Assembly (NCBI RefSeq): GCF_963676685.1
Contig: NC_092347.1
Coordinates: 26,970,001 to 27,034,000 of the forward strand
Reading direction: 5' to 3'
From: Mytilus edulis
Taxonomy: Eukaryota
Length of the DNA: 64,000 nt
In this document: one piece after another, positions 6,554 through 59,121 of the stretch
How positions within the stretch are numbered: position 1 is the first letter of the stretch
Layout: every line of letters begins with the position of its first letter
Translations under genes and position numbers: made by a program
The notes under the pieces: model-generated
Database searches by the model: none
Seen by the model: only the letters and a program-made list of their open reading frames with translations
What the model was told of the DNA's origin: nothing

Positions 6554-6747
6554 TTTATTACACTTCAACAGGTGTATTATTTTCCTTGTTTGTAACCTAG
6601 GCCTCCTTGACAAACTTATCCCAGGTTTTTAGAAACATTTTTCGATCTATGATTACTCATTTCTCAGTTTATAAATAAAGTGTAGTATGAATAAACTTTA
6701 AATCAATATTTAAAGTTAAATGACTGTTTAAAACAAGTGGTATACAT

Positions 6748-6910
6748 AATTGTTTTACATTGTCTTTTCGGGGCCTTTTATAGCTGACTATGCGGTATGG
6801 GCTTTGCTCATTGTTGAAGGCCATACGGTGACCTATAGCTGTTAATGTCTGCGTTATTTTGGTCTTTTGTGGATAGTTGTCTCATTCACACCACATCTTC
6901 TTTTTTATAA
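6748..6910 (+). repeat. Abundant ~160-bp interspersed repeat matching the 3' end of the Penelope-like fragment at 12525-13697
   Basis: GGGGCCTTTTATAGCTGACTATGCGGTATGGGCTTTG...CATACCACATCTTC. Related copies at ~2795-2945, 13535-13697, 38628-38785, 45300-45700 and 51330-51700. Absent from the duplicated segment at ~8985. Confidence 0.75.
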
Positions 6911-7219
6911 ATCTAGCAAATGATATGTTGGAGTTTAAATGGACGTATGAATAGGTGTACATGAATATATAAGATATTATTTGAATTTATTTTCTCTGAT
7001 TAGAATATGCAAATAAACTCATCATATATCTGCTCTATCTGGCATTAAGTATTTGGTGGAACATTGTCTTACTCATAAGTATGAATTGCCCACATTTTCT
7101 TTTTTTTTTGCTAAAAAAAAACCAAAAAAACTGCCAGCAGAAGTTGAGGTAAACGTATACAAGAATATATTTTTTTCCTGGATTGCCTATAGTATATACA
7201 ATGATATTTTATGAATGTT

Positions 7220-8672
7220 TTAACAAAGTGATATTGTCACTTCATATAATTTGGCGTCCTTGGCTTTACACCTTTTTGGTGTACTACATTCTATATAGAG
7301 TTGTCCTGTTGGGGTGAATACAAGAGAACATAGTAGTACTATGTTTATGTCACTTGTTTTATGACATGTCACCAGTGTGCCAGCATTGTTCAGTATATGG
7401 AGTGTATGAGTGTTGATATCAGCTACAATAACATTGTCTCTAGGTGTTGTCACTATGTCTCTTGGATTGAAAGGTATGTCTTTGTTGATCTCTCTATCTC
7501 CTGTATAGATATTGATTATATCGCCTCCCTGTTCTAACATTACTACTCTATATATGCCACCACGTACTCCACCATCAACTACATGAATATTACCATTACT
7601 GGTACTGGTAATTCTCAAGAGATAGGTAAATATAGGTTGTTTATGTTGGTCATGTTCATACACTCTCTCGTGGTCTCCATTCCGATTCATCAGTATTACA
7701 ACTCTTTTTCCTTATTATAGTCTCTATTATTACCTCCTACTAAAACTTTATTGTCACTAGTGATATGGACTGCTGTAGGGTAGAATGGTGATAGATTATA
7801 TACTGTGTCTGTAAGTGATTACTTCTTTGAGTCTTAATCCCTCAGGACACAGAAGTAGATTATCTGATTGAGTAACAGCCATACCATACACATTTATATT
7901 ATAACTGGATAGAACCTTTATGTTGTTTTCATCAAGTGTTACTTTTTGAACTAAACAAAAACCACCAGAACTTATCCAGAAAGTCTGATCAATAGATGAG
8001 CTAACAAATGTTACAGCCTCTAATTCAGTTTCATATTGTTTATTTAATTCCAGATGAACATGCGGTTCATAAGAAAGATTTTCATCAAATTCCAACACCC
8101 CAATGTAAGCCTGAGTGACCTCTTCTGGAATGAAGTTTGGTAAAGAGCCATAACTTGATCTTGGTTGGGGTATTTGAATGTCAATAGATTTTTCTAAATT
8201 GTTTACTCCTGTAAAGAACTTGGAGGCATCACTGATTTGAATGAATTCCTGTACTTTATTGTTTTTGTTGTCAGCTTGTTTTAGTAAAACTGAGACAGCA
8301 TTTAAGTCAGTTTTGATCATGTTAGAAACAGAGTTGTGATTCTAAGAACATCTTCCTTTACCTGGTTGTATTTATAATTTTCTGATGATAAAAGTTGGCT
8401 AAGCTGTTCTTTTTTATATTTTGGGTCCTCAATGCTCTTCAACTTTGTATTTGTTTGGCTTTTTAACTATTTTGATCTGAGCGTCACTGATGAGTCTTGT
8501 GTAGACGAAACGCGCGTCTGGCGTATAAAATTATAATCCTGGTACTTTTGATAACTAATTATATACAATTACTTTCCTTTTCCTTTGAATTTTCCTTTGT
8601 CCTTTTTTCAATTTGTCAAATTTAACATCGTATCCTTCATGAATTTCTGTTCGATCATGTTTGTTGTGAATT
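7220..8672 (-). pseudogene. TRIM/NHL-like pseudogene, copy B (tandem duplicate lacking most of the B-box region)
   Basis: ORFs 7796-8320 and 7220-7690 are nearly identical to copy A. It has its own frameshifting deletions and the same hammerhead-repeat insertion. The 5' part is replaced by a repeat at 8675-8905. Confidence 0.8.
8481..8524 (+). ncRNA. Minimal type I hammerhead ribozyme
   Basis: Same architecture as 6070-6113 with an intact core. Cleavage predicted after C8518. Confidence 0.8.
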
Positions 8673-13697: not shown

Positions 13698-15274
13698 GTT
13701 CGCTACACTCGGTGATATTTTTTAAATTTTATATGGAATTACACTCCTTTCAAAATCTAGGGTCCGCCCATAAAGAGTACTTTTGAACTGTGCAGTATAT
13801 CTGAGGAAGTTATTGCACACCTTTGCTGTGCATTATCCAGATTATAGCACAGTAAGAACAAAGAGATTTTACCCATGTCATGTGTTAAGTATCCTTCCTT
13901 AACACATGACAGAGGCAAAATTCCTTTGATCTTACTGTGGTATAATCTGGATAATGCACGGGTCAGGTGTGCATTAACTACTTCAATAATTGCACAGGTC
14001 AAGTGAACTTCACGTCCTTGACAGATGTTTATTGTACAGTACTTTGCGTTTGTTGATTCCATTGCTACTACAAATATTTGTTTTTCTCCATTTTGTAAGA
14101 AATATCAAGTGGATACATGTATCTATACTCGGACATAAAAATCAGTCACTTGATAAAACATCAGAATAGAAAACATACAAAACAAATGTAGTAGTATTGC
14201 AATCAACATAATACAAGTCTAAATAAGATAAAGAACACAGGTTGATTTAATACTAAAATTATTTTTCCATCAATATAAAAAAAATTGTCATTAAAAAAAA
14301 AATGAAAATAAAGTATCATCGACATCTTCCTATTATAGTCTTGATATGTAAGTTATCAGTGTCACAACATGACACAATGAAAACTAAAAAAAAAAACCCG
14401 CCTTTTCATACATTTCTATGTACGGCTTAAAAACAACTTAAAATAACAATTCAGTGTTAAAAATTGAACACAAAATCTGTGAGGTTCACATCTTCGTTAC
14501 AAAATTGAACACGAAGTTTTGAAAAGAGCTGTTACTTGGCAATCCCCGATATTTTCCTTCTGGTTTTGAAACATTAAATGCATTTTCTGTATTTTCAATA
14601 TTAACTTGCTCAGGAAAGATTGCACGAGTATCGGTTAATGGTTTGGGATCCTCAAGTTTTATCTGCTTATTAGATGGATTCAAAATGTTAGAGACATCTT
14701 TTAGCATAGAATCCGCAGGTCTTTTGTAGGTACGAACAGCCTTTTCACTCCTGTGACCTGTTCTATCCATTATCATCTGCTCACTGACTCCTGCTTGGTA
14801 CAATCTAGTTGCAAGTGTTCTTTTCCCCGAGTGGTTACTAAAATTCCCCTTTAATTCTCCCTTTTGGCATATTGTCTTCATGAGTGACCCTAATCTATTA
14901 GCACCCAGTATGTGGTCAAACTTAACAGAACCATCTGATAAAACAGGTCTACGATAAAAAAAAAAAAAAAGGACTGCTAACAGATTTATCAATTTCGAAT
15001 ATTGCATTCATATACATCTGATACGATTTTAGGGTCTGACAATCCTTCTCTAAATATTGTCCGACATATTTTGGTGCAATATAGCGATGGCGTAGCCCTC
15101 CATTATACGTTTTATTATCCTTACCCCGGAATTCAATATAGTTTCCGTTATCATCTTCTCCTAATTGTATTTGAGAAATTTGCAGATTACGGTGTTCGTC
15201 ACGACCACGTAGACCAAAATATTTACAGTTGTAGAAAAAAACAGTATGCAATAAACTTTCGGATGAATGATTAC

Positions 15275-15371
15275 TAACTAAGCATTTACTAATATACTGT
15301 ATATTCATTTCAGGTATCAGTCATCCTTATTATTAAAGCTATAAACCTAGGAAGATGTTGACTCTCATTTA
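15275..15371 (+). repeat. 5' LTR (97 bp)
   Basis: Direct repeat of 20711-20807. Begins TAACTAA and ends CATTTA. Confidence 0.92.
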
Positions 15372-15413
15372 TGACTGATACTCAACTAACAGCTTAACCA
15401 CAGTGAATTTACA

Positions 15414-18400
15414 ATGCCAGTTCTACAGTGCCCTATAGACGGCTGTAATTGGAAATCTCAGGACCTGGATGAAGCATTTGCTGCTGCTCTAACCACTGCT
15501 CTACAGATTCATGACAAAACCGTCCACCCACCTCTGGCTCAACCGTCAACGCACAAGTTAAAATTAGACCCACCTTCTATAGCCACAGGATGTGATCCAG
15601 ATCAATGGTCTGCATTCACTAGACAGTGGAAGATGTATAAAACAGGGATGGCGATCACAGACAATGTCTTGCCCACAGCCCTTTTCTACTGCTGTGGCAC
15701 TAATCTGCGTACAGATATTATGCGTGACCTTCAAGGTGATGTTGCTAGTATGCTAGAGACAGATCTTTTAAAGGCAATCAAAAGGCTAGCTGTCAAAGAA
15801 GAAAGCACACTTGTCCAACGCATAAAATTGAACAGGATGACTCAATCACCTGGTTCAAATATCAGAACTTTTTTGGCCAGTCTCAGAGGCCAAGCATCAC
15901 TGTGCCAGTATAAAGCAACGTGTAAAGAATTAGGTTGCAACCATATATTTGACTATAGTGATGAGATAATAAAAGACAATTTAGTAAGAGGTATTGCAGA
16001 CCCAGAAATTATGTCTGACCTGCTAGGTGACTCCAAGACAGATAGAACATTAGAAGAGACTGTATCATTTATTGCTCAGAAAGAGCAGGGTAATGTCACA
16101 AGGAGTGCAGTAGGAGATTCAACTAGTGCTATGAGTGCCACATGTAATACCCAGAAGCGACCACAAGCAGCTGGAGCCAAATGTTGGGCTTGTGGTGGTC
16201 CTGCTCATGGACAGAGGAATGATCGCAAGGCCAGGTCTAGATACTGCGAAGCTTGGACATTCACATGTTCTAAATGTACAGTCAAAGGCCATTACACCAA
16301 ATCATGCAGCAAGTGCACTACCTGTGGCGTATGGGGCCACCGTGATGCATCTTCTAGAATCTGCACTCAAGGTAAGGGCCACAGGAACCCGCCCAATCAA
16401 GGGAAATCAACCAAAGACCAAGAACAAGAACAAGTTGGTTATATCTATGAGCAGCTGTGCACTACATCTGAACAGACAAACCAAGTATTACGTCTTGAAC
16501 ATCACATATTTGATGGACACTGGGTGGCGAGACCCTCAAAACCACATCCAATGCTCCTGGTGAACATGACACCCCTACCTGAGGACCATTCATCGTTTGG
16601 ACATCCCATTCAAGACACCTCTCAGCTTAAGACAATCACTATGTCCATGGTGGCTGATACAGGATGCCAGAGTTCAATCATACCTTTACAATCTGCAAAC
16701 AGTCTTGGAATAACAGAAAAGGATCTCCTTCCAGTAAAACTTGTGATGCGTGGAGCTATAAAGGAAGACCTCGGTGTAATTGGAGCAGTCGCAGTAAGTG
16801 TTACAACAAAAGACACTACTAGCAGTGCCATGTCAACACGTTTATTGCGTTATGTCTCTGATACCAAGGAAAAAGCTTTCATTTGCAGAGAAGCACTCAT
16901 ATCTCTGGGAATTATTCACACTAACTTTCCTAATGTATCAACAGTCACATCTCCAAACATTGCTGCATCTATGGAAAACTCTGAAGATGTAACCTGCTCT
17001 TGTCCTAGACGTCGACCTTCACCACCACCTGTTCCCACATCTTTACCACCCGGTCTGAAGGCCACAGAGGAACATATAGAGTCACTAAAAGAGTGGTTTC
17101 TTGATTACTATGGTGCTACAACATTTAATGTATGTGAACATCAACCTCTACCACTTATGAATTGTGAGCCTCTTCAACTCCATGTTGATCCAAATGCCAC
17201 ACCGGTAGCCGTCCACAAACCAGCACTTGTTCCTATCCATTGGCAGGATAAAGTTTATGCTGATCTTGAGAGAGATGTTCGCATTGGTGTACTGGAACAA
17301 ATAAGTCAAAACACACCTACAACTTGGTGCTCAAGAATGGTTGTAACCAGCAAGGCTGATGGCACTCCAAGGCGGACAGTAGACCTACAACCACAAAATC
17401 GACATTCTGTTCGGCAAACACATCATGTCCCAAGTCCTTTTCATCTAGCTGACCGTGTCCCTCAAGGTATGAAAAAAACAGTGACAGATGCTTGGAATGG
17501 GTACCACTCAGTGCCTGTTCGTGAAGAAGATCGCCATTTCACAACATTCATCACACCATGGGGGCGCTACAGGTACAAGGTTGCTCCACAGGGATTTATG
17601 GCCAGCGGTGACGCTTACAATCAACGATTTGATGCTATAATATCAAAATTCAACGACAAGGTTAAATGTGTGGATGACACATGTATGTGGGCGAACTCCA
17701 TTGAAGCAGCATTTTTTCAGGGATGTGAATGGCTCGACCTGTGTGCTCGTAACGGTATTACATTAAACCCAAAGAAGTTTTAATTTGCTCAAGACACTGT
17801 CAATTTTGCAGGACTTACAATCACCCCAACAAACATACGACCAAGTACTAAGTTCCTAGATGCAATTAGCAACTTCCCAACACCAACTGACATTACTGGT
17901 GCAAGAGCTTGGTTTGGGCTAATAAACCAAGGAGCATATGCATTTGCCATGGCAAGACAAATGAAACCTTTTCGTGCTCTGTTGAAACCATCCACCACAT
18001 TCTGCTGGACAAATGAATTAGATGAAGTATTTCACAAGTCAAAAGAGATCATTATTCAGGAGATGAAGGAAGGTGTTCGTCTTTTTGACCCTGCTCGTAT
18101 GACATGCCTAGCTACCGACTGGTCTGTTGACGGAATTGGATTCTTTTTGATGCAGAAGTACTGTCAGTGCTCAAGTAAAACCCCTACCTGCTGTAATGAC
18201 GGTTGGAAACTATGTCTAGTTGGCAGCAGATTCACACATCCAGCAGAAAGTAGATATGCTCCTATTGAAGGTGAGGCATTGACTGTTGTGTATGCACTTC
18301 ACCAAACACGCTACTATGTTCTTGGTTGCAAAGACCTTCTTGTTACAACTGACCACAAGCCACTACTACAGATTCTGAACGATCGATCACTCACAGACAT

Positions 18401-20265
18401 CGACAACAGACGACTTCTCAACCTCAAAGAGAAAACTTTAGGGTACAGATTCACAATTCTTCATGTACCAGGCAGAAAGAACCTTGGGCCAGATGCAGCG
18501 TCACGGTATCCTGTTGGACCACCAGATCGTCTGAACTTACCTGGTGAAGCACCTGAACTTGATTCCCTAGTTAACATGACTGCTCATTATCATGATACAC
18601 TTACCAGTCTATGTCTACATAAAGAGGATAATGATACAGCTAATGACGCCTCCACAGTCGCTGCTGCCACTTGTGCCTTGAATGCTGTTATCACAGTTGT
18701 TACTTGGAACATGGTTCGTGAGGCCACTGCATCAGACCCTACATTTGTAAATCTAATCAGGCAGCTGGAAGCAGGGTTCCCAGAAGACTACAAGGAGCTA
18801 CCAACAGACTTGCGTCCTTACCATCGCTTTGCATCCGTTTATGCACCGTGGATGGTGTAGTTCTTATGGGCCAACGAATTGTTATACCTCCAGCTCTTCG
18901 CAAACCAGTACTCAATGCTTTACACGCAGCCCACCAAGGAGTCAGCGCTATGCGTGCGAGGGCCATGGACTCTGTATATTGGCCTGAGATCACAGTAGAT
19001 ATTGCCCGGGTGAGAGACCAGTGTGTTCACTGCCATCAGATGGCTTAGTCAAACCCTATGCAGCCACCATCTGCCATAACACCTCCAGATTATCCATTCC
19101 AGATGATTTGCAGTGACTACTTCACATATAACAGTAATGACTATGTAGTTATTGTTGACAGGTATTCAAACTGGCCAATGGTATACAAGTCTGAATCAGG
19201 TGCCGAAGGACTTGTCAAGAGACTTCGTGAGACGTTCGTGACATTTGGAATCCCAGAAGAGTTGACGTCTGATGGAGGTCCACAGTTCAAAGCAGGGAAG
19301 ACTCAAGAGTTTTTAAAGGCCTGGGGAGTTCGTCATAGACTTTCATCAGTTGCAAACCCACACGCTAACTGCAGGGCTGAGATAGCGGTAAAAACAGTAA
19401 AACGCATGCTGGTGGACAACATTACTGCTGTTGGATCTCTGGATGTTGACAAATTCCAGAGAGCCTTACTAATGTACAGAAATTCTATTGACCCAGAGAC
19501 AAAAGCATCACCAGCATTGATTCTGTTTGGACGACCCATTCGTGATGCCATTCCCATACTGATGGGTAGATATTCTCCACATGAAACATGGACTGAGTTA
19601 ATGTCTCATCGAGAGATGGCTCTTGCCAAATGTCATTCAAGGGAACATGAACGGTGGAATGAACACACTCATCACCTGCCAACACTACAGGTTGGAGATC
19701 ATGTATACATACAAAACTTGGTAGGCAACCATCCCAGGAGATGGGAACGTACAGGAACAGTTGTTGAAGTACGCCAATACCACCAGTATGTTATACGTGT
19801 AGATGGTACAGGCCGAGTAACTATCCGCAACCGCCAACACCTTCGAAAGTTCACTCCTTTTCAAACCAACCAAACACAAGGTACTTTGATGGCACCTACT
19901 GCAGTTCAACATCAAGAAGTGATCTTGAGCTCTCCATCTACACACAAGTGCCCAAGATTCCAGTGTCTTTATCACCAACAAGAATCTTAAGTCAACCAGC
20001 TGCATTGAATGAGACACCAATTATAGTCCCCACTCAAAAACAGGCGACGCAGACTCAGACAATTCAACAGCCTTCACAAATAGATTTGGACCAGTCATTC
20101 CACCAGACCCCTGAAACAGATGTACCTTCAACGTCTAGAATACCACGTGCTCTATCCCGTCTTCAGCCACATAATAAAGCTGGAGAAAAGGAACTATTGA
20201 CACCACGAAGACCGAGCCGCCGCAACACAACAGAACATAACATTGATGAATCAGGAACTGATTAA
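15414..20265 (+). pseudogene. Gag-Pol polyprotein with stops and frameshifts
   Basis: Zinc knuckle CSKCTVKGHYTKSC, protease VADTG, RT DAWNGYHS..PQG..CVDD, RNase H LATDWS..YAPIEGE..TDHKPL, integrase HAAH..CVHC, SDYF/SDGGPQF/AEIAVK. Stops at 17781 and 19046, frameshifts at ~18838 and ~19945. Confidence 0.92.
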
Positions 20266-35800: not shown

Positions 35801-37634
35801 ACAAGAGTTTCTATAATAAAGTGCAAAGGGATAAATGATAGAAAAACTTCATAGAAACCATGTTTTCATGATCCTATCAAAGAAATGTAATTGTAAATAT
35901 TGAATACTTCTTGAAGTAATTTTATAGAGTTTTAAAAGTTGACCCTGCGTGCATTTTTAGAATGAAGCGCTTCCGTGCTTCATACAAAATTCAATCTTAT
36001 TTGTTATTGAAGTAATATTTATCTTGTATGTTATTGTAGGCACCTATAGAAATGAGAGACGAATGGTGGGCACAGTTGTTAATGACTGGACATTCTTCAT
36101 CAAGACGGAAAAACTTGTTGCGTTTCTTTCAAAAAAAGGAAAATGCAAAGTTAGTAAGAGCAAAGAAGAAAGTGGAAAATGAGAAAAAGATGGAGATACA
36201 TGATGCAGAAAAAAAAATTATGATGGGAGATCTATTGTACAATCCAATTAAGAGAAATACTATTCATTTAAAGATCTTAAGACAAACCATGGTTCATCAA
36301 ACGGATTCTAAACTAGCACAATCTATGATATTTGGTAGACCATTCGTTGTTGATATGAGCTATGAACCATACATGGGAATTAAAGAGAAGAACAGTTGTG
36401 TAGATCAATTACTTAATGGTTATGGTGCCAATAGATCTAGAAATGAACCTAGTGATCTCATATTTACCAACTGGATTCATGATAGCTTTATCTTTAAAAA
36501 GCTCAACTTTATTCAAAAAGAGCGATCTGCTTACCCTACCTTAATGATGAAATGTACTGAACAGAATTATGTGGATCTATTCCCAAAGGAAAGACTGGTA
36601 TATCTGTCACCACACTCACCTTTTGAGTTAACACACGATGACCCAGACAACATCTACATAATGGGAGGATACGTTGACTTGGGTGGCGGCAAGCAAGGAC
36701 AAAAACCAGTATCCTATGCTAAAGCTAAGCAAGAAAAAATTAGAAGTTGCAGACTCCCCTTAGATAAATATTGTGTGTAAGTTTAAGTTTGTGTGAGTCA
36801 TTTAAGAACCTCAAACAGAAATTGTGTTACCATCCTTTTCTTGAATTTCTCTAATAGACTGTTGAATAAATGTGAATACAATCCAGGTAAACTCGTAAGA
36901 GAGTCACACTATCTCTTTTTGATAAACATGATAAAGAGCTACTGAACAAAACACAACTAAAATGAAATGTGATCAGTATTTTGCATGTGAGTTCATAATA
37001 TAATGAAATTGAGAATGGAAACGGGGAAAGTGTCTAAGAGACAAAAACCAGACCAAATAGAAGAAAACAGCCCAAGGCTACCAATGGGTCTTCCACACAG
37101 TAAGAAAATCCTGTACCTCAAAAGGCAGGTCTCAGCTGGCCCTTAAACAAAAATGTATACCATGTATACTGATTCACACTATCATAGAAAAAGGAAGTCA
37201 CACTAAAATCCAAAACATAAATGAACCAAAATGAAAAAAAACAAACTTGCATGACTTACAAGACTAAAATTGGCCGTATGTTCCTGATGCAAAAATGCAG
37301 GGGGATTTAACATGTTTTGTGAGATGTCAAATCCCCCCAAACCCATAGCCAATGTAGAACTTATGTATTTTTATGCTTATTTGTGATGGGGGAAAGGAGT
37401 TAAATGTAGAATTTATGTATTTATATGCTTATTTGTAGATGGGGTACAGGAGTAAAGTCCTTAACCTTGAACCAAGTGATGAATATAATGTATGAATTTA
37501 TTGATACAAAAGACTGGAGCAGAGCATTTGAGCATGTGCCACGCAGGAAGTTACAAAGAGATGCGGATTTACGGGAACATTTATACAAAAAGCAGCAGAA
37601 AATGAATCGTGTCAACAGACGTCAATTCTTATGA
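29830..37634 (+). CDS. TRMT10C: tRNA methyltransferase 10 homolog C / mitochondrial RNase P protein 1; exons 29830-30144, 36040-36776, 37439-37634 (415 aa)
   Basis: Phase-consistent GT-AG introns, 1248 nt total. SPOUT Trm10 motifs FGRPFVVDMSY, LFPKERLVYLSPHS, IYIMGGYVD, RLPLDKY, WGTGVKSLTLNQV, W..AFEHVPRRK. Arg-rich N-terminus. AATAAA at ~37785. Confidence 0.9.
30170..31458 (-). mobile_element. Internally deleted Tc1/mariner element in TRMT10C intron
   Basis: Perfect 26-bp TIR CACATGGAAAAAAGTATTGCAACACC and TA TSD. Transposase remnants GHHHSTISR, RTVR..L...GFRA.RP.RRPLLT.RH and WPDRSPALNHIEHIWD. The middle of the DDE core is missing. Confidence 0.9.
31530..32735 (+). mobile_element. Helentron-associated (HINE/DINE-1-like) element with internal tandem repeats
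   Basis: Subterminal IR TTTATTCGACTGTA / TGCGGTCGTATAAA, (CGT)n microsatellite, ~120-140-bp tandem units, short GC-rich 3' end, T-rich flanks. Confidence 0.7.
32797..34487. mobile_element. TA-flanked MITE (C.GTGGATTCATT termini) hosting a nested insertion; related copy at ~35544-35754
   Basis: TA-CAGTGGATTCATT ... AATGAATCCACAG-TA. Confidence 0.7.
32825..34248. mobile_element. 1.4-kb non-autonomous DNA transposon, 5-bp TSD GGTAT
   Basis: CAGGGGTGGATCCAG ... CTGGATCTGCCACTG, with GGTAT on both sides. Confidence 0.75.
34705..35245. repeat. Degenerate ~32-bp minisatellite
   Basis: Recurring GGTTTAATACAGGTTTTCATGTTACCCAGTGTT-like unit. Confidence 0.7.
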
Positions 37635-42643: not shown

Positions 42644-45600
42644 TTATATTTGTACACATGACCCACTTTTTAACATTGTTACACATGATGCATGTATTGG
42701 ACTTGTGGGATAAATTTTGATAGGCAAGTCCCACACCATTGTTTCTACATTAATAGTAGCAGGTCCTCTCCAGCTGGCTGAATCATCCATATTTGTAGGT
42801 CTTTCTGATTCAGATATTGGATCACTTGAAGTCACGAACTCAAAATGTAGTCTCCATCTCAAACAAACTGTAAATATTAACAATAAATGTTACATTTTAT
42901 TTATCTAAGTAGGATTCAGTAGGATAAATTCCAAAAATTCTATCTGTTAATTGTCTCCCCTTTTGCATTTTTATAAAGAAATACAAATAAATCTTATCAT
43001 TCTTCGCTTGTTCAAAAATAACAGAACATTTTTGGTATTTATATCATTTGATACAGTGTATTGATGTGTTTTGGTCTATCATTTCAGCCGGCATATCTTT
43101 GTATTTGTTAGAGCAGGGAACAATGATGTGCTTGAATTATTTATATTAGTTTTAAAAGTTTCATTCCTAAATCTATTATAAAGCATTGGGTAGCTGTATT
43201 TAATTTGATATTGGTGTATTAATATGAGTATTTGTTAGTTCTAACCTATATCTGTTATGAAGCATGGAGTAGCTGTGAGTGGTATTGGTATATTGACATG
43301 AGTTTTAGCTGTATGAAGACACATTTCCTGATGTTTGACATAAGACGTCACAGCTGTTCCTTGACCAGGCTTCTTTCTACATTCTTCTGAGATTTGCTCC
43401 TCACTTTGTAATGTTACAGAATACTGAAAAATTAAAGTAGAAAATATTTGAGCCTTTCAAGATATTTGTTGTCATCAAAAAGTACATGCAGAAACATGAA
43501 TGTGTCCATAGTACTGATGACCAACTCACACTATCATTTTCTATGTTCAGTGGACTGGGAAATTGGGGTCAAAACTCTAATTTGGCATTAAAATTAGAAA
43601 GATCATACTGTAGGGAACAGGTGTTCTAAGTTTCAAGCTGATTGGATTTCAAAACTACATTGATCAAAAACTTTAACCTGAAGTAACAGACAAATCTATA
43701 GACTAAAAACATAATGCCCCTAGGTGGGACATTAATGTGTAGGAAACCCCCTAAATTAAATAAAACAAGAATGTGTCCACAGTACACGGATGCCCCACTC
43801 CCACTATCATTTTCTATGTTTAGTGGACCGTGAAATTGGAATAAATTCTCTAATTTGGCATTAAAATTAGAATGATCTTATCAAAGGGAACATGTATACT
43901 AAGTTTCAAGTTGATTGGACTTCTACTTTATCAAAAACTACCTTGACCAAAAACTTTAACCTGAAATTTGCACTATCATTTTCTATGTTCAGTGAACCGT
44001 AAAATTGGGGTCAAAACTATAATTTGGCATTTAAATTAGAAAGATCATATCATAGGGCACATGTATACTAAGTTTCAAGTTGATTGGACTTCAACTTTAT
44101 CAAAAACTACCTTGACCAAAAACTTTAACCTGAAATTTGCACTATCATTTTCTATGTTCAGTGAACCGTAAAATTGGGGTCAAAACTATAATTTGGCATT
44201 TAAATTAGAAAGATCATATCATAGGGCACATGCATACTAAGTTTCAAGTTGATTGGACTTCAACTTCATCAAAAACTACCTTGACCAAAAACTTTAACCT
44301 GAAGCGGGACAGACGGACGAACGAACGAACAGACGGACGGACGAACGGACACACAGACCAGAAAACATAATGCCCTCTACTATCGTAGGTGGGGCATAAA
44401 AATGATTAAAAATTAAAATAACAGGAGAAGATTTTGATGGAAGAACATCATGTTAAAATTAACATAAAAATTAAAAGTTGTCATTTTGTGGCAGTTAATA
44501 ATATCATGGAATAGATTTTCCATTTGAATAAAAGAAGATATGAGCCATACAGCACAAGACAGCAAACCAACAGAGAAAAAACACCTTTTAAAGACGATGA
44601 CAGATCAACATATGTTTTTTTTTTGTACAGGGGGCACACTGGCTTATTGCAAAGCATATAAAAAGACATGTTTCACTTGTGAACATATCTTTTTTCTGGC
44701 TAACTAATCTTAAAAGTGAACAGGATAAAAATAGTTTATACTTTATATAATAGTGATCAATAGCCTGATATGATCTGGGGACATTTAATAATTATGAATA
44801 AGAGTGACAGTTGTATGCATGGCAAATAGGATTTAGTTACTGGTGACCAAATATCACAATTTCTTACAAAAACTCATCCATGATTCAAAGTTTATAATTT
44901 GTATTTGGTATGCCAGATGCAAGTTTTTTTTTTAGAAAATATCCAATCTTGATCAATTTTCATAACATTTGACCAAATCTAAGGATTTCATTTCTTCCAT
45001 TTATATTTTGATTCTGTCATACTGGGACAGATTTAATTGTTTGTAGATCTTTATTTTCTACCAACCTGGACACATGGTATTGTTCCATCTGTGAAGTTGA
45101 ACACACCTACAATGTCTTCACCTAATTTATAGGCTTGCTTAAAAAGTATAAACTTAGCTACTTTTCCTTTGGCATTTGTAATATTGTATGAATCTGAAAT
45201 GAAAAAAGTTTGTTTTATTTTATTGCTTATGTATTTACATTGTATCATAGATCAAATTTATTCATTCAGTGTAATGCCACTTGTGTTAATATGCATATGT
45301 CTTTTGATTGAGTTAAGCCATTTTAATTGATTTTTTATAGTGTGTCTTTCTATGTTGGGATGTTACACTATTTTTCAGATAAGGGTGAAGGTTGGTACCT
45401 ATTAAAATGTTTAAACCCTAAGCCTTAGTCAGGAATCCTATGTACAGTAGTTGTTGTTTGTTGATCTGGTTCAAAAGTGTTTCTTGTTTCTTGTTTCTCA
45501 AATAGGTTCAACCATTGGTTTTCCCATTTGAATGGTTGTACACTAGTCATTTTTGGGGCCCTTCATAGCTTGCTGTTTAGTGTGAGCCAAGACCGTGATG

Positions 45601-48600
45601 AAGGCGTACTTTGACCTATAATGGTTTACTTGTATAAATTGTAACTTGGATTGAGAGTTGTCTCATTGGCACTAATACCACATCTTCTTATATCTATTAT
45701 ATAAAGAAAACATGTCCTTAAAATCTTGTTAAATATTAATAAAAACTTATTAAATGAAAACATGTCATTTAGTCTCTTGTGGAGAGTTGTCTCATTGGAA
45801 ATCATACCACATCTACTTATGCTTAAATGTTAAATGTTAGTATTGCTGTGTTTCTTTTCCATTTGCTTGAGGTATAGGGGGAAGGCTTAGATCTTACAAA
45901 ACATGTTTTTACCCTACCATAGTTTTATAACCTAAATTACATGATTACACATAGTATTTAATTTTTTTTGGTTCATCTATGAAATAATAATAATATGTGA
46001 ACTAAATATAAATATACAGTAAACTTTGCGTCTATCTATGGTAAACAAAAAATATGTCTGGTGTACAAAACTTTAAGTCTGGTAACTTTGATGAGTTCAT
46101 TTTCACTGACCAAATGACAAACTTATTCCAAACCAAGGTGTGATAATGAATTAAGTCTGTACAATATCATGATCAGAAATATTCTACACTTGTTGCCTAC
46201 CAAATTAAAGCTGCCCAGACTAGGCCAACTAAAATTAATTAGTAGATTTTCATCCAAATTTTTGAAAAAAATGGGGCGGGTGGGAGGATTTTATTTTTTA
46301 AATTTTATTTCATATGAAACCTTCTGGTCACGGTTTATTCATATATGCAAGTGTAATAATAAGCTTATATCATGTAAATACATCCATAAGGTGTCTTGTA
46401 TAAGACAGTAACAATCAAAACCAAGGAGTAACCAAAGACTCATAAAACCAAAAGACATTTACATCAACAGTTACAAATAATAGGTAGGAATTAACACGAA
46501 CTCCACTAAAAACCAGGAGTGAAATCAGGTGCTCCGGAAGGGTAAGCATTTCCTGCACCATATACGGCTCCTGTCATGTTATTTCTTTGTTCAGTTCGGT
46601 AATGATGGAAGGTTATTATGACTGAGGAAGAATATCACTGAGATATGATTTCTGACACACTTTTGTCATAATGGCCAATCAGCTCATGATGACGACCATA
46701 AAATTGCTTGAGTGATGACTTTAATTAGATTGATTCATAGCCCTGTCTTATCAACTTTTGAGAAAGCAGTATTTCTCGTTCAACAAATCAATGTACTTTG
46801 AGCTAGCTCTAGAGTAACGTATCAATTGAAACACATATACTCCATATGCTGGTGCCGCTTTTTCAAATTCGTAAATATATATCTCTGATTGGCAATCACT
46901 GTTACTCATGTAATTGCTGCTTTAGATACCTATTTTATAGTAAACAGCAGAAATGAGGAGAAATGCTCTCTTCATTTGGACTACCTCCATCAAATGTATT
47001 TTGCTTTCTAAGCAATGTTTTGTTGTCCTAATAAAATGAAGCAAATGCATTGGTATGCAACACGAGTACGATAAGTACAGAATAAAATGAAAACTTAAAC
47101 AGTGTTGAAATAATAGGGTTGGTCCTTAGTATGCAAGATGCAAATATAATTACAATGTAAAACATAAAGTTGTTTAATGACTCTATCGTCAGTATTGTGA
47201 CAGAGGATGTTTGCTGTTTTTCTACAAAAAACGAAAGGCATGGCTAAATCTTAATCTAAGAGCTTGCTATAAATTAATAAATAAAAAATGCGTATGTTTG
47301 TCGATTTTCTGAACTCAATATACCGTCACCAATCTAAAAAGTTCATGCTTGTGTCAATTTCTTTATTCCAGTCAAATGTGTTCCACGATTCTTACGCTTT
47401 TGGGTTTCATTCACAGTTCAAATTTCTTGACACAAAGTCATTGTATAAATAAAATAAATCCAAGGTGTTTTAGGGAGCTACCATTTGATTTTTATGGGGG
47501 GGCTAGGATGAAATTTTTTTAGCTGTAATCTCTGTCCTGCCTTTTTATTTTTCACTCTGTTCGGTCCTGCATATTTTTTTTTTTAGTTTATCCAGACTTT
47601 TTTTTACCTCAATTGTCGTCCTGACTTTTTTTTATAGCAAGTGTCTCATCCTGCCTTTTTTTTTTTACTCAAAACTCCTGTCCTGCCTATATTTTTTAAA
47701 TTTCATCCTAGCCCCCCCCCCCATAAAAATCAAATGGTAGCTCCCTTATTCACAAACATTTATGTCATTTGTGACATACGGCGATTTGCGTTTTTGGACA
47801 CAGCATATTACTCGTAACCCGAATATTTCATGCCCTTCTCGTAATCAATCTCTATTCTCGGTAAATGATGTTATCATCATAGATCAGAATATATCGACTT
47901 AATGATTTTAGTAAGAATACTCTGAGAAATACGAAAAACCGTATTTTAAAACAGGAAGTTTTACATGAAGGGAAATTATCAACGGTTACCGGTAACGGAA
48001 ATGAACAAAATCCGGAAATCAAAATTTTTTCAAAAATAAAAAAAATCGGGGCGGGAAGATTTCAGAGGGGCGGGCGGGGATGAAAATCTATCAATTAATT
48101 TTAATTGGCCCTATAAGTTAACATACACTTTTCACAACGACCTTCAACTTCAAGCTGCTGTTGTTTTGTTTTTCCTTTCAGTAGACACTAAATGTTGATC
48201 AAACTTACGTGGTGCTTTTCTTGCTGTAACTGTTGATAAAACCTGCATGGCAATATCTAGTAGCGAGTTCTCTGACTGCTGAGGTTTAAGGAATGGATTT
48301 GAGGGTGATACCTCTTCTCCCTCTGTGTACACACTTATATCATTTAAACCTGAATCATACAAGATAACATGATATACTCCCTCTGTGTACACACTTATAT
48401 CATTTAAACCTGAATCATACAAGATAACATGATATACTCCCTCTGTGTACACACTTATATAATTTAAACCTGAATCATACAAGATAACATGATATACTCC
48501 CTCTGTGTACACACTTATATCATTTAAACCTGAATCATACAAGATAACATGATATACTCCCCCTGTATACACACTTATATCATTTAAACCTGAATCATAC

Positions 48601-51600
48601 AAGATAACATGATATACTCCTTTGTGTACACACTTATATCATTTAAACCTGAATCATACAAGATAACATGATATACTCCCTCTGTGTACACACTTATATC
48701 ATTTAAACCTGAATCATACAAGATAACATGATATACTCCCTCTGTGTACACACTTATATCATTTAAACCTGAATCATACAAGATAACATGATATACTCCC
48801 TCTGTGTACACACTTATATCATTTAAACCTGAATCATACAAGATAACATGATATACTCCCTCTGTGTACACGCTTATATCATTTAAACCTGAATCATACA
48901 AGACAACATGATATACTCCCTCTGTGTACACACTTATATAATTTAAACCTGAATCATACAAGATAACATGATATACTCCCTCTGTGTACACACTTATATC
49001 ATTTAAGGTGGTATGGGTGTCTTCCTCCATCTTGGATTGTAAAAAACAGAGAATCAAAGGTCCAGATTTTCCATCAAGTTAGCAAAATTTGATGCAGGAA
49101 TGCAAATGTTTAATGTACATTTTCATTTAAAAGTACCAATTTATAAGAATATAACTTCTAAATAATGATATTTTTGCAAATGTTAATTATTTTTGGTTGT
49201 TTTTTTGTTGTTTTTTTTTTAAATTGGCATTTTAAGGGGAGGTAACTCTAAAAAAGTGCATTTTCTGAAGGATTCTGTATGGAATTTTCCTATTTTGTAT
49301 TTTAGCCGGAAAAAACGTACGGTGACCCTATCTTTTCTTTTGATATTCTCAAAGCAGTGTCTGAAAGCTATCTTTTCCTGAAGTATTTAACAATTCTATT
49401 ATTTTGTTTAGTTTCTAATCACAAAATGGGGTTTTTACCTGTATAATCCATACAAAATGTGTCATTTTGTCCCGTCCTGTAGCTTGAGAAAATGCGCAGT
49501 GACCTATCATTTTTATTATATTTTTCAACATGTATCAATAGATACAACGTTTTGACAAAGTATGAACAAATTCTATCATTTTTATTTTAGACTCCCATAC
49601 CACCTTAAACCTAAATTATACAAGATAACATGATATACTCCCTCTGTGTACACACTTATATCATTTAAACCTGAATCATACAAGATAACATGATATACTC
49701 CCTCTGTGTACACACTTATATAATTTAAACCTAAATCATACAACATAACATTATATACTCCCTCTGTGTACACACTTATATCATTTAAACCTGAATCATA
49801 CAAGATAACATGATATACTCCCTCTGTGTACACACTTATATCATTTAAACCTAAATCATACAAAATAACATGATATTATGTCAACATCTCTAACTAGACA
49901 TCATTGAGATGGGAGTCATTCAGCTTGGCCCTAACTATCATGTATAATAAATGCTTTGATAATTTTATGATTTTAATTTCAAGGCAAATTGTACTAACAC
50001 ATTTCTTTAACACAAGAGAGTTGTAGGTCTTTTCTATTATGTTTTACCCTTATCTTTGTCTGCTTTGAACATATACAATACAACTCACTAATATCCTCTG
50101 TTGTTATACAACACAGTGAATCTATTTATTCTAAACCATTGTGTTCTTATTCATCTTATTCACTTTCTATGCGCTGCCTTCAAAAAGAATTGTAATTTGC
50201 TAATACATGTACTGTATTGCAAATGCAGAAGATCCAATCCAATAAGGAAAAATCTTGAAAATATCTGTTGGGGTAAATTTGATCTTTCAAAAAAGGTAAA
50301 AAATAGAAAAACAGAAAATGCAAATATCAAACCTCATGAAAATAATCAATTTAGTATAAATTTGTGTTTTCTTTACCGTGTAATACCATAACTCTAAATG
50401 GCATTCTGATAAGTTTTGTTGGCTGATTAAATTTCTGTGCACCAATTGTAACTTTGTAAGAATACTTCACCGCCTGGCCTTTATAGGAAGGTGGAGAGTC
50501 CACAGGTATTACATCTTCATATATAACTAAAAATAAATGAAACATTATTTATAAATCTGTCCTTTATCAGGAAGATCAATAGTCTACAGGTATCACATCT
50601 TCATATATAACTAAAAAATAAAATGAAACATTATTTATAAATCTGTCCTTTATCAGGAAGATCAAGAGTCTACAGTATCACATCTTCATATATAACTAAA
50701 AAATAAAATGAAACATTATTTAAAAGCCAGTTTTTTATATTACAGACAGGTGGACTTGTCAGGTATCACATCTTCATAAGTTCATATACTGTAATAGCGA
50801 CATTATAAATAAGTAAGAGTTATCTATCCTTACATTGAATGTTGCTGTGTGCTTATCTTTAAGAGAATCTATGTAATGAATATGTGCAAGACCTGATGTG
50901 TTTGATTAAAGATGGTACCATCAATGGTATTAAGCATTTGTATATGCCTTTGGTTTAATCTAGTAAACTCGTCCAATAGCGACATTACATATACAATTTA
51001 TAAACAAAACATAATATCTTTTACAACCTCTCCCGTTATGCAAACAGAGTCTAGGTTTCTGAGATGAACAGTAGAGTTTTGCTCTTTTGAAGATGACTAA
51101 CAAAATTGAAAGAATCTTAACTAATCATTGATTTATTGGATGATATCAGCATAAATAGACATTGTATGCCTACTGTAAGGATGCAGTCTTATTTACATAT
51201 AATCTCCTGATCAATTTTACTGGAAGAGTCAAAATCTTTATTTAATAATAGTTTTGTAATCAGCAATATACTGATTTTCTGCATTTTCATCAAATATTTG
51301 TATACATATATATATACATATTTAGGCAAATGTTTTTATGTTGTGATGTTACACTATTGTTTCAGATAAGGGTGACGGTTAGAACCTACTAAAATGTTTA
51401 AACCCGCTGCATTTGTTTGCACCTGTTCTTATATGTCTTAGTGAAGAATCTGATGTTTAGTAGTTGTCTTTTGTTGATGAGGTTCATAAGTTTTCTCGTT
51501 TCTCATATAGATTAGACCCTTGGTTTTCCGTTTGAATGGTTTTACTCTAGTCATTTTTGGAGCCCTTTATAGCTTGCTGTTTGGTGTAAGCCAAGGCTCC

Positions 51601-54185
51601 GTGTTGAAGACAGTACTTTGACCTATAAAGGGTTACTTTTACAAATTGTGATTTGGATGGAGAGTTGTCTCATTGGCACTCATACCACATCTTCTTATAT
51701 CTAAAAATATCACATAAGAAATCAAATTGTATAAATTTGTATGTAGTATTGCTGCTTTATCTTACATGACTTTGATTCTCCAGCTACAAGTTTCAGATCA
51801 CAGAACAATATCCTGGGCTTTGTTGATAAAACTGTTAGTCCACGTTCACCTATAAAACATACAGAATGTAGACAACCCTAACATGCATGTACATATATAT
51901 ACCAGTAACAAAACAGATGATTTAAATTGGGTTTATCATTTTTATTTACTAAGGTCAAATGATCTGAGTGGCTACCAGATCAATTAATTAAACCTTTGTA
52001 CTAATGTTATGATGGTCAAGTGGTGTGAGTGTCTGCCTAAATATATCATTGTTATGATGGTCAAGTGGTGTGAGTGTGTGCCTAAATATATCATTTCAAC
52101 CTAGTATAACAGTCTCGCATTAAGCCCTTTTTAGCCCACTTGTGACAATATAATTTCACAATTTTCAAATTTACTTGATGTAGTTAGATATAAAAGATCC
52201 CACTTTTAAATTTTTGCGATGATTTATATTCATGATATTCACATTATTTATCTACTTGCAAAAGTTGTGGAAATAAATTGCTTGCAAAAAATTAGTTGAT
52301 TTACAGAATATCTGAAGCAGGAATTTCAAAAAATCATTTGGAAAAATAACAATGTGCACTTTACTAACTGTTGTTTTTGGCAGGAAAAGGTTTTTGTTTT
52401 ACATAGGTAACTTTGGTATTTGTCTCTTAAAAAACATTGATCATCACATGTTTAAATGTCTATAAAACTGTGAATTACAATGTATGTTAAATTTATGTTT
52501 AAATTTAATAAACAGTTAACACCGAGATACATCTCATGGACGTAAATCTCTGTGTAAATAAGAAATGCCAATGTTAAGTAGTAAAGTTGTATATCAAATA
52601 TCATTGACTTACCATAAGTAGTTACCATTATACTGACCTAATCACCAACTTCAGCTGCTACAAATTCCAAGTCCCTACTTTGCAACTTTGTCAAGGAAAG
52701 ACAAAAATTATACTTACATAAAGTTATGTATAGTTTACCTTTATTGGGTACAAAAGATGTGTCACACCCAGTAGTTGACACTTCTTCTGTTGACAGTTGC
52801 TGTGACTTAGGAAGGTGCACCCTTGATTCACTCACAGAACACTGACATATTATCTGTACACTAGACCAGGCTAGACTATCTGTATCACTATAAATAAACA
52901 CATAATATCTGTACACTAGACCATGTTAGACTATCTGTATCACTATAAATAAACACATAATATATGTACACTAGACCAGGTTAGACTATCTGTATCACTA
53001 TAAATAAACACATAATATCTGTACACTAGACCATGTTAGACTATCTGTATCACTATAAATAAACACATAATATCTGTACACTAGACCATGTTAGACTATC
53101 TGTATCACTATAAATAAACACATAATATCTGTACACTAGACCATGTTAGACTATCTGTATCACTATAAATAAACACATAATATCTGTACACTAGACCACG
53201 TTAGACTATCGGTATCACTATAAATAAACACATAATATCTGTACACTAGACCACGTTAGACTATCTGTATCACTATAAATAAACACATAATATCTGTACA
53301 CTAGACCACGTTAGACTAACAGTATCACTAATTCACTATGAATAAACACAAAATATTGTATGGGTGTTGCCTATGCATTGTACAAGGGTATTCAACAAAA
53401 TCTATAAAAATGTAATTTTATTTATGTGCAAACAATATGTTTCCAGAAATTATTGCCTTTTTTCATGAATGGATAAACTTGCAAGTTTTATAATTGCCGT
53501 TACATTAAAATATGAATAAAGATCTATGTATCAGTTTTCAAAATGCAAGTTTTTACTGTGAAACTCACCCTGTCGCATTTTTCACATTAATGTCAAAAAT
53601 TTTGGATCAACAAGAGTGAATAATGATCTCCCCTTGTAAAGCATTGAGGGGAATGAACTTAGATACCAATACACCTGTACACAGCTTGTAATCATGGTAA
53701 TGGTATATTTGCAATAGTTGAGAGTGTGGCACTATCATATTATGGGTTATGAACAACATCAGTAGACCATTGTAAGGGTTATCAAACTTGGTTTTAAATG
53801 TAAATCAATATTAATGAATACATTTAACAATGAAAATATATATAGTTATAATTAATAATTAGATTTGGTGGTTTGGTGCATGTGTTAATAAAAAAGTATT
53901 GAAGGTAAATTAACAACTAAAAATATTATAATTAATAATCTAATGTAAATAAAGGCAACAGTGGTATACTGCTGTTCGAAATTCATAAATTCATTAAGAG
54001 AAAACATATCCAGGTTACAAACTAAAACCTGTAAAACTTATAAATCATCTATAAGAGAACATATATAATATATATACTACAAACCTTGGATTTTGTGAGG
54101 TGTTACTGAAGGTAATCTGACTTTTGACAGTTTCACCAGCTAGGTATACAGACCCTCTTGGCAAACAGGCTGATACTTCTATCAT
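42644..54185 (-). CDS. RGP1: RAB6A-GEF complex partner protein 2; exons 54185-54085, 52887-52739, 51849-51766, 50526-50377, 48349-48209, 45193-45066, 43423-43246, 42867-42644 (384 aa)
   Basis: All introns are GT-AG and phase-consistent, 1155 nt total. [99 protein letters not shown] matches metazoan RGP1 as recalled. Confidence 0.95.
43490..44402 (-). mobile_element. Two adjacent HINE/pearl-like elements with ~170-bp satellite units (43490-43735; 43763-44402); fragment also at ~22240-22385
   Basis: GATGCCCCAC / GTGGGGCATAAAA subterminal IR, (GACG/GAAC)n microsatellite, and one and three tandem units respectively. Confidence 0.75.
46405..46860 (-). mobile_element. Penelope-like RT C-terminus/3' fragment
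   Basis: [17 protein letters not shown] remnant followed by a conserved non-coding tail. Confidence 0.6.
47473..47745. mobile_element. Harbinger-like MITE, TSD TTA
   Basis: Long TIR GGGAGCTACCATTTGATTTTTATGGGGGGGCTAGGATGAAATTT. Confidence 0.85.
48318..49876 (-). repeat. 60-bp tandem array (16 units) spanning the RGP1 exon 5 acceptor
   Basis: Unit = 28 nt of intron end + ~32 nt of exon start. Interrupted by a MITE. Confidence 0.95.
49007..49604. mobile_element. TTAA-flanked MITE (Kolobok-like) inserted in the 60-bp array
   Basis: TIR GGTGGTATGGG(T/A)GTCT (15/16). TTAA duplicated at 49003-49006 and 49605-49608. Confidence 0.9.
50478..50780 (-). repeat. ~84-bp tandem triplication spanning the RGP1 exon 4 acceptor
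   Basis: TTTTTAG|TTATATATGAAGATG occurs with the AG at 50527, 50611 and 50696. Confidence 0.9.
52849..53352 (-). repeat. 55-bp tandem array (9 units) spanning the RGP1 exon 2 acceptor
   Basis: TTATGTGTTTATTTATAG|TGATACAGATAGTCTA.. repeated every 55 bp. Confidence 0.95.
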
Positions 54186-56102: not shown

Positions 56103-59100
56103 ATGAATGGTGCCAGTGAAAGCCAAGAGGAAGCTAGCAGCAGGAATGGTATTCTGAACACGAGAACAAAACTGAAGGTATGATGTTGGAATGTTCGTAC
56201 AATGTATGAAACAGGAAAACAAGCACAAATTTTAAATGAAATGAAAAATTATAAGCTCCACTTACATTTTGTACTAGGCATTAGTGAATGTAGATGGACA
56301 GGTTGTGGAAAGTCTATAGCAAGATCAGGAGAAACAATCATACATTCTGGAAGGACAGACAACAAGCATCAACAAGGTGTTGCTATAATTATGAACAAAC
56401 AAACAGCAAAATCACTTATTGAGTACAATCCTGTAAATGAAAGAATTATAAGAGCCCGTTTCCATGTAAAGAAAGGCAAAGTAACTTTTATTCAGTGCTA
56501 TGCACCAACAAATGAAGCGGAAGAGGAAGTAAAAACTGAATTCTATAACACCTTGCAAGCTGAGATCAGAAAAGTACCAACACATGATTTGACAATTGTA
56601 ATGGGTGATTTAAATGCAAAGGTTGGCAACGATAATACAGGAAATGAAAGAGTAATGGGTAAATATGGATGTGGGCAAATGAATGAAAATGGAGAACTTC
56701 TGGTTGACTTTTGTGGAATTAACAACTTAGTAATTGGTGGAACCATCTTCCCACACAAAGACATTCACAAGCTAACTTGGAACTCACCAAATGGAAGAGA
56801 CAAAAATCAAATAGACCACATTATGATCAATGGAAAATGGAAAAGATCCTTACAAGATGTCAGAGCAAAGAGAGGAGCTGACATTGCAAGTGCATGATCA
56901 CTTTCTAATAACAGCCAACATAAAGTTGAAACTTAAAAAGATGTCTTCACCAACAACCATTAAAAGAAAATTTGATATAAATAAATTGCAAGACACCAAT
57001 TGCAAAGTAAAACAAGAATTTAACCTGCAGATAAAGAACAGATTTCAGGTCCTAGAAGACACAATAGAAGAAACATCAGAACCAGCATCGATAAACAACA
57101 AATGGCTAAAAGTAGAAGAAATATACAAAGAAACCAGTGAAAAAGTCCTTGGCTATAAAAGACAAATACATAAAGAATGGATTACACAAGGAACATGGAA
57201 ATTGATTGATGAAAGAAAAGAAATAAACAACAAACTCTGTCAGACTTATTCAGAAAGAATAAAAGATAAGCTGAGGAAGGAATACTCAGAATGCAATAAG
57301 AAAGTGAAGAAAGCAACACGAAGTGACAAAAGAAAGTATACAGAAGACCTTGCAAAAGAAGCAGAAGATGCTGCATCCAACCAGAGAATGGGACAGGTTA
57401 ACCAAGTTGTAAAACAGCTATGCAACAAGAAAACTAATAAGAGCATGCCAATTAAAGACAAACAAAACAGCACATTATCATCTGAAAAAGAACAAAAGGA
57501 AAGATGGAAAGAACATTTTCAAGAAGTTCTCAATAGAAAAGAACCAGAAAATACAGTTAGCATCGATATCACAGAAACACCATTAGAATTAGATATAGAT
57601 CTTTATACGCCAACCAAACTAGAAATCCAGAGAGCACTAAAAAGTTTAAGGAATAGAAAGGCACCAGGCATTGATCAATTAAATGCTGAACTCTTTAAAG
57701 CTGATGTTAAGCAAACATCAGATATCCTTTACCCAGTTTTTAAAGAAATTTGGGAGAACAACATCATACCAGACAACTGGTCCGAAGGTGACATCATAAG
57801 GATACCAAAAAAAGGTGATCTTACTAATTGCAATAACTGGAGAGGTATCACTCTTCTCTCTATTCCTAGCAAAGTATTTTGCAAAATCCTAATTTCACGA
57901 ATTAAAACAGCTATAGACAGAACACTGCGACAAGAACAGGCAGGTTTAAGACAAGGACGAAGCTGTATAGACCACATATTTGTCCTCAGAAACATCCTGG
58001 AACAATGTACAGAATGGCAAAGAAAAATAATCATCAACTTTGTAGATTTTGAAAAGGCTTTTGACAGCTTACACAGACAGGGATTATGGACCATCTTAAA
58101 AAGCTATGGAATTCCTGAAAAACTAATACAACTCATCAAAGCCTTCTACGACAACTTTAAATGCACTGTAGACTCTGACCAAGACACTAGTTTTTTGGTA
58201 AAATCTGGAGTGAGATAAGGATGTGTGATGTCATCTCTCTTGTTTATCATTGCAGACGACTGGGTGATGAAATCAACAATGTCAAATACCAACAACGGAA
58301 TAAGGTGGACACTCACTTCAAACCTAGAGGATATAGACTATGCAGATGATCTAGCATTAGTATCCCATACTGAAAATCAAATGAAAGAAAAAACGGAGAG
58401 GTTAGAACAGAATGCCAGAATGATTGGTCTTAAAATCAACTCTAAGAAAACACAAATAATGACAGTAAACATGCTTAATACACCAGACATCAAAGTAAAT
58501 GGAGAACAACTGGAATTGGTACAGTCCTTCACTTACCTAGGTAGTATTGTAACATCAGAAGGTGGAGCTGTACAGGACATCAAAACTAGAATTGGCAAGG
58601 CAAGATCAGCCTTTCACAGACTAAGAAACATCTGGAAAACACCATCAATCAGAAAAAAGACCAAACTGAAAATCTATAACAGCTGTGTAACATCAGTTTT
58701 ACTTTACGGAGCTGAATGCTGGAGAATGACCTAAAAAGACATTAACAGGTTATCCAGCTTTCATAACACCTGCCTACGTAGAATCATGAAGATATACTGG
58801 CCAAACAAAATAACAAATGAAGATCTTCATAAGAAAACAAAAAGCCAAGATATTGAAACCACTCTGCTACAGAAAAGATGGAGATAGCTTGGTCATGTCC
58901 TAAGAAAACCACAAGGAGACATGACCAAAGTTGCATTAAGATGGACACCAGAGGGAAAAAGGAAAAGAGGACGACCAAAAACAACATGGCGTAGAACAAT
59001 AGAAACAGAGATGAAAGAGAGAGGTTACACCTGGGGAACTATTGAGAAAAAAGCAGAAAACAGAGAGGAGTGGCGGCAACTTGTCCTTGCCCTATGTGCC

Positions 59101-59121
59101 AAAAGGCATAACAAGGACTAA
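56103..59121 (+). pseudogene. RTE endonuclease-reverse transcriptase ORF, disrupted
   Basis: WNVRTM, LGISECRW, CYAPT, MGDLNAKVG, NQIDH, KAPGID, NWRGITLLS, FVDFEKAFDS, DYADD. Stops at ~56181, 58216, 58732 and ~58886, frameshift at ~56893. Confidence 0.92.

Follow-up and report, generated by a model that had tools for sequence, protein, structure and literature searches.

A 60-bp minisatellite stacks 16 acceptors before exon 5 of RGP1 in Mytilus edulis: probably a mirage array with the last acceptor favoured

The RGP1 locus and the exon 5 array

We analysed a window of 64,000 nucleotides from Mytilus edulis (assembly GCF_963676685.1, contig NC_092347.1, positions 26,970,001 to 27,034,000 of the forward strand; positions given here count from its first letter), in which the end of intron 4 and the start of exon 5 of the gene RGP1 are repeated as a 60-bp minisatellite that stacks splice acceptors in front of the exon (Table 1). 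The 384-residue spliced product is identical to a protein named Mytilus edulis RGP1 in its source (P0014), the gene product matches the Pfam family Rgp1, and the top match of a fold search was 9ayr_B, from the yeast Ric1–Rgp1–Rab6 structure; a first-pass annotation, made from the letters alone, had also named the host gene RGP1. A sequence search of solved structures with P0014 gave 0 matches. Four RNA runs confirm that the gene is expressed, at a depth of a few reads, and 13 reads from three of them span the exon 5–6 joint. Intron 5 holds a short inverted-repeat element (47470-47745), at which RNA reads from other copies of the element accumulate and some reads skip it. The M. coruscus RGP1 model (P0011, 393 residues) repeats the nine residues that close exon 7, and RGP1 of that species may therefore carry a donor-spanning duplication.

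All 16 AG/GT acceptors reported by the first-pass annotation (the slash marks the junction) are present on the minus strand, a number that is one assembly's copy count. The corresponding exon starts lie at 48349, 48409, 48469, 48529, 48589, 48648, 48708, 48768, 48828, 48888 and 48948 in a proximal block and at 49610, 49670, 49730, 49790 and 49850 in a distal block, and the acceptor letters are TAG at 49610, 49730 and 49850, as had also been reported, and CAG at the other 13. In each unit, 27 nt from the end of intron 4 are joined to 33 nt from the start of exon 5. Tandem Repeats Finder (TRF) describes the proximal block as 11.5 x 60 bp (97%) and the distal block as 4.5 x 60 bp (94%). The 14 units compared differ at a mean of 1.8 of 60 bases (maximum, 6), a low divergence which suggests that the units are young or homogenised. 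Database proteins from other mussels contain the extra unit as well, so the duplication was not created by errors in this assembly. The unit matches the genome at the RGP1 locus only (14 of 14 matches), and a dispersed-repeat or transposon origin of the unit was rejected on this evidence.

Joined to exons 1–4 and 6–8, the five proximal acceptors up to 48589 are in frame and stop-free, as had been claimed, and give products of 384, 404, 424, 444 and 464 residues; the other 11 lead to a premature stop at codon 170-282. Each step upstream adds 20 residues, although not the same peptide each time as previously stated, given that one unit carries G9T and one has two changes. A one-base deletion, annotated near 48620, lies at 48622 and does shift the next six acceptors; the surrounding sequence is a run of G, and an assembly error may account for the missing base.

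The first-pass anatomy had the right number of acceptors but omitted a 602-bp transposon that cuts unit 49610 after its first six exon bases. This element has termini GG...CC, is flanked by TTAA on both sides in 6 of the 6 loci examined, and is present in the genome in at least 40 copies at 97–100% identity (1,991 candidates at first look). The TTAA duplication, the inverted repeats and the dispersed copies are those of Kolobok-type elements, for which PMC9587614 gives as the rule a duplicated TTAA target and ends of the form 5'-RR and YY-3', and by its ends the transposon would be a young, high-copy Kolobok-type miniature element. Without the transposon the array measures 959 bp, or 16.0 units. 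The sequence upstream of acceptor 49850 is unique intron, and this acceptor is probably the original one; the only branch-like motif within the unit is ATCAT at -21. A special RNA structure that hides the decoys was considered and rejected, as the five-unit repeat folds at -68.0 kcal/mol compared with -65.6 +/- 11.3 kcal/mol for 100 shuffled-unit repeats, 40% of which were as stable.

Table 1. RGP1, its acceptor-spanning arrays and the transposon within the exon 5 array (window coordinates).
Feature	Position	Strand	Remarks
RGP1 coding region, 8 exons, 384 residues	42644..54185	-	spliced product; PF08737; fold match 9ayr_B
RGP1 exons 1–4	54185-54085, 52887-52739, 51849-51766, 50526-50377	-	
RGP1 exons 5–8	48349-48209, 45193-45066, 43423-43246, 42867-42644	-	
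Coding exon 5 (141 nt when spliced at the last acceptor)	48209..48349	-	spliced product; exon 5–6 joint in reads
Coding exon 4, with the donor that is joined to the stacked acceptors	50377..50526	-	
Proximal array block, 11 intact acceptors and the rest of the split unit	48317..49006	-	TRF block
Four units with in-frame acceptors 48409, 48469, 48529 and 48589	48350..48589	-	+20, 40, 60 and 80 residues
One-base shortening	48622..48622	-	the six acceptors from 48648 to 48948 lose the frame
Non-autonomous DNA transposon, 602 bp plus duplicated TTAA	49003..49608	.	terminal inverted repeats starting GG; inserted in the unit's TTAA
Distal array block, 5 acceptors	49605..49876	-	TRF block
Best branch-point-like motif, TTGAC (predicted)	49879..49884	-	A at -31 from acceptor 49850, outside the repeated unit
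Exon 4 acceptor-spanning array, 85 bp x 2.9, three acceptors, AG/TT	50474..50722	-	2/2 upstream acceptors lead to premature stops
Exon 2 acceptor-spanning array, 55 bp x 8.8, nine acceptors, AG/TG	52845..53330	-	8/8 upstream acceptors stop at codon 51

Sister arrays and their frequency in the genome

Two further arrays span acceptors of the same gene, at exons 2 and 4. In the exon 2 array, substitutions that include an Ala to Thr codon are common to 8 of 8 upstream copies and are absent from the coding copy and from 16 of 16 relatives. For comparison we sampled 100 internal exons of small size, 40 from kinases and 60 from Ras genes (matches of ≤300 nt on the 14 large contigs); they were picked in list order from 137 and 150 matches, skipping near-duplicate paralogues and the list tails. 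The Pfam-locus sets consist mostly of single-exon genes and were set aside in favour of these exons. A simple heuristic served to locate the splice sites, and the test recovers all three RGP1 arrays. None of the 95 acceptors called in the sampled kinase and Ras exons has an upstream copy, and acceptor-side arrays thus seem rare in this genome. Downstream copies are clear for four of 98 donors, in two kinase and two Ras-family exons, as donor-spanning tandem duplications (L083:1760-1991, L114:1668-1932, L144:1641-1982 and L173:1621-1760, coding strand), and weak in two more (L096, L100); among random intronic positions, 19 of 2,000 lie at a comparable repeat edge. This bias of arrays towards donors would fit decoy acceptors being the costlier kind, as they are transcribed before the true one. 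A nearby tRNA methyltransferase gene (PF01746), presumably that of a TRMT10C-like tRNA m1G methyltransferase, has a 52-bp two-copy duplication across its last-exon acceptor (37351-37453), the upstream copy of which is without AG.

Acceptor use at exon 5

We read the array as probably a mirage minisatellite of the intron 4/exon 5 boundary, in which 48349 would serve most of the mRNA with at most a minor leak to the next copies. The unit spans an intron–exon boundary, AG is kept on the intron side in 16 of 16 copies, and the repeat is specific to this locus. The last acceptor alone yields the 384-residue protein, the length of 8 of the 14 proteins in the Mytilus RGP1 cluster. The donor of exon 5 forms the most U1 pairs (9/11) among the seven donors of RGP1. 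On this reading the array copies are drifting passengers and no splicing device.

A 60-bp duplication that took in the 3' splice site may have started the array, which would then have expanded through slippage or unequal crossing-over, with homogenisation as in other minisatellites. The transposon that now splits the array would have entered a unit's TTAA later. Exon definition from the strong exon 5 donor would select the nearest acceptor, the products of the 11 out-of-frame acceptors would run into stops and decay, and the nearest one or two copies might leak, as with the human 6-16 and CBS donor arrays.

Several observations weigh against this reading. Two of the 14 cluster proteins (P0007, P0013) have 404 residues with exactly one extra unit; both are M. 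galloprovincialis gene models that carry two different alleles of the unit, and the longer form appears in two independent annotations. In one of these it is isoform X1, with four accession numbers compared with one for the 384-residue form. Such models may be read-mapping artefacts: reads with an overhang of less than 24–33 nt fit either copy, and aligners can thereby create them. There is also an excess of reads at the repeat end. In mappings of the four RNA runs on 45000-48376, in which intronic repeats swamped the signal, the last 100 bases had depths of 5.2 and 7.8 compared with 3.4 and 1.1 in the preceding bin (two stranded runs); either extended exons or intronic RNA collapsed from the 16 units would explain this excess. 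The insertion falls where a low-confidence linker begins, following strand 149–158 (predicted local distance difference test (pLDDT) < 50 at 167–177), and the corresponding region of yeast Rgp1 is described as a flexible linker in PMC11618376; 20 more residues might therefore be tolerated. According to PMC1557585, splicing of human 6-16 and CBS also draws on the next two copies of their donor minisatellites. Finally, acceptor arrays at three of seven RGP1 sites compared with 0 of 95 in the sample (Fisher P = 2e-4, or 0.003 minus the exon that drew attention) go beyond a uniform neutral rate.

Alternative explanations

An alternative that would make the array matter to the protein is a copy-number-dependent choice of acceptor. 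Short alleles, with the original acceptor plus a single copy, would often be spliced at the original site, where the best branch point is retained, and make a real 404-residue RGP1; longer alleles would put that site out of reach, such that repeat length tunes both the ratio of isoforms and productive mRNA. Acceptor copy number would then be a polymorphic splicing dial of RGP1, and the first mirage read as protein; we regard this as unlikely, although it is the alternative to which we give some weight. The 404-residue models with their two alleles of the unit speak for it, as do the position of TTGAC at -31 outside the unit and the flexibility of the insertion site. Three unspliced-type fragments carry the extra unit, two of which (P0136, P0139) start directly past the place where an in-frame stop lies ahead of the original TAG acceptor, and these starts would fit an allele of two copies, the upstream acceptor being the original one with its TTGAC branch motif retained. 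Copy-number polymorphism of the array is suggested by proteins only, through two alleles of the unit and what is likely an allele with two copies. Against the copy-number explanation, only 5 of 139 fetched proteins have the repeat peptide, the three Logan members that cover the site (P0005, P0008 and P0017) are all without the extra unit, no full-length protein of that source has it, and a search for short proteins yielded two matches among five candidates, both of the unspliced type, with none joining exon 4 to the unit. The in-frame extension proposed in the first-pass annotation thus holds as arithmetic and has a counterpart in the two 404-residue models, but a spliced transcript fragment with the extra unit was not found. 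The ambiguity of short-overhang reads also tells against a dial, and the linker is constrained in length: the segment F155-P180 has 23–30 residues in 98 of 98 homologues and would have 46 with the insertion.

The AG/GT geometry itself, present at 16 of 16 sites, had been taken as that of ratchet points, at which exon 4 would be spliced to an upstream copy, the GT would regenerate a donor and a second step would lead to 48349, rescuing mis-spliced transcripts. As such recursive splicing gives an mRNA equal to that of direct splicing, protein data do not tell the two apart; we hold it to be very improbable. The regenerated donor (G/GTTTAA) is as weak as had been proposed but falls below all true donors: its duplex with U1 has -2.8 kcal/mol compared with -4.4 to -9.6 for the seven true donors, the weakest of the eight compared, by a crude measure based on the U1 end. 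There is no pairing at +3 to +6, and 33% of 611 intronic GT sites do as well. The spacing is 60 nt, with proximal segments of 60–600 nt in an intron of 2,027 nt, compared with fly segments that are nearly all >1 kb. The GT is also the phase-1 codon of Gly162, which is found in 94 of 98 homologues, and the identical junction is present in all normal mRNA. At exons 2 and 4 the gene manages the same task with AG/TG and AG/TT; because these exons are spliced to the last of nine and three acceptors without GT, no special mechanism is needed at exon 5. Moreover, given that their periods are 55 and 85, that they have no GT and that 10 of 10 upstream acceptors there lead to stops, the 3n period of 60 and the AG/GT at exon 5 look incidental.

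Intron gain was the other process to which the first-pass annotation had tied the array, through the AGGT tandem-duplication model. The copies lie inside the existing intron 4, no new intron is made, and the conserved 384 residues come from eight exons, which together count against the claim. In a variant taken from a hypothetical model in the Fig. 7 legend of PMC3087553, intron gain would be in progress, with 60-nt mini-exons between the AG of one copy and the GT of the next. Genomic CAG/GT does pair with U1 at -5.6 kcal/mol, inside the range of true donors, because the exonic CAG contributes. Pairing at +3 to +6 is absent here too, a new exon is needed by the gene models of 0 of 139 fetched proteins, and the tandem-duplication model proper concerns exonic segments (PMC3443670); we hold the mini-exon explanation to be the least credible of all, marginally below recursive splicing.

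Relation to known systems

The RGP1 array belongs to a class already described in lancelets and humans. Amphioxus mirage minisatellites are reported for the globins BflGb6 and BflGb9 (Ebner et al. 2010, PMC3087553), for Adh3 (Canestro et al. 2002, cited through PMC3087553) and for PGBD5 and troponin C (PMC3902484), and at both boundary types they leave splicing intact (PMC3087553, PMC3902484). Like the RGP1 array, their units combine an intron 3' end with an exon start and keep the splice signals intact in most copies; they have 81–100% identity, allele-dependent copy number and normal mRNA. The RGP1 array differs in its host, a mollusc, in its 16 copies, in its 3n period with four upstream copies free of stops, in the one-unit extension found in gene models of a sister species, in the split by a transposon and in the presence of three arrays in one gene.

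Human donor-spanning variable number tandem repeats (VNTRs) in F7 intron 7 (37 bp), 6-16, CBS intron 13 and LMNB2 (Borensztajn et al. 2006, PMC1557585) are similar in that a minisatellite stacks identical splice sites and the site nearest the exon wins. In these donor arrays the true site is transcribed first, whereas the true acceptor of RGP1 is transcribed last, after 15 decoys. Drosophila ratchet sites share AG/GT at their centre with the RGP1 array; they are conserved, have strong motifs and strong donors, lie in very long introns and bound segments almost all of which are longer than 1 kb (Pai et al. 2018, PMC6110457), in contrast to the weak donor, 2-kb intron, 60-nt spacing and apparently young copies of RGP1. 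A broader size range for recursive splicing is mentioned in PMC10156609. The AGGT model of intron gain (Yenerall and Zhou 2012, PMC3443670) likewise starts from tandem duplication of a segment that holds AGGT; there an exonic segment is duplicated and a new intron is created, whereas in RGP1 the end of an existing intron is duplicated and the intron merely grows. Our literature searches found no description of such arrays in molluscs.

Other features of the window and genome

A non-LTR retrotransposon (LTR, long terminal repeat) lies at 56184-59121; frameshifts and stops disrupt its frames for endonuclease and reverse transcriptase. Stops also interrupt a set of LTR-retrotransposon-like frames at 15390-19990, which include reverse transcriptase and an integrase-like portion; a tyrosine-recombinase remnant (14486-15320) adjoins this insertion. 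Two tandem broken copies of a B-box/NHL-repeat gene, which we take to be TRIM-like, occupy 4790-8341. Elsewhere in the genome, near-identical single-exon kinase genes stand head-to-tail ~1.8–1.9 kb apart on C1 at 44.21-44.23 Mb (L032-L041) and on C3 at 19.69 Mb (L027-L030).

Implications

The mollusc case at most extends the range of the mirage class. Should acceptor copy number act as a dial after all, two-copy alleles would give a 404-residue Rab6-activator subunit with a longer linker, and long alleles would give a +60-nt ladder or transcript decay. In either event, gene models labelled isoform X1 with 20 extra residues at such arrays need checking. As one of the three RGP1 arrays is in frame, use of its upstream acceptors is visible without decay, and the choice among identical acceptors is directly testable in animals of known repeat length. 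With three arrays of different phase, RGP1 is naturally suited to the study of how a spliceosome settles on the last of as many as 16 near-identical acceptors.

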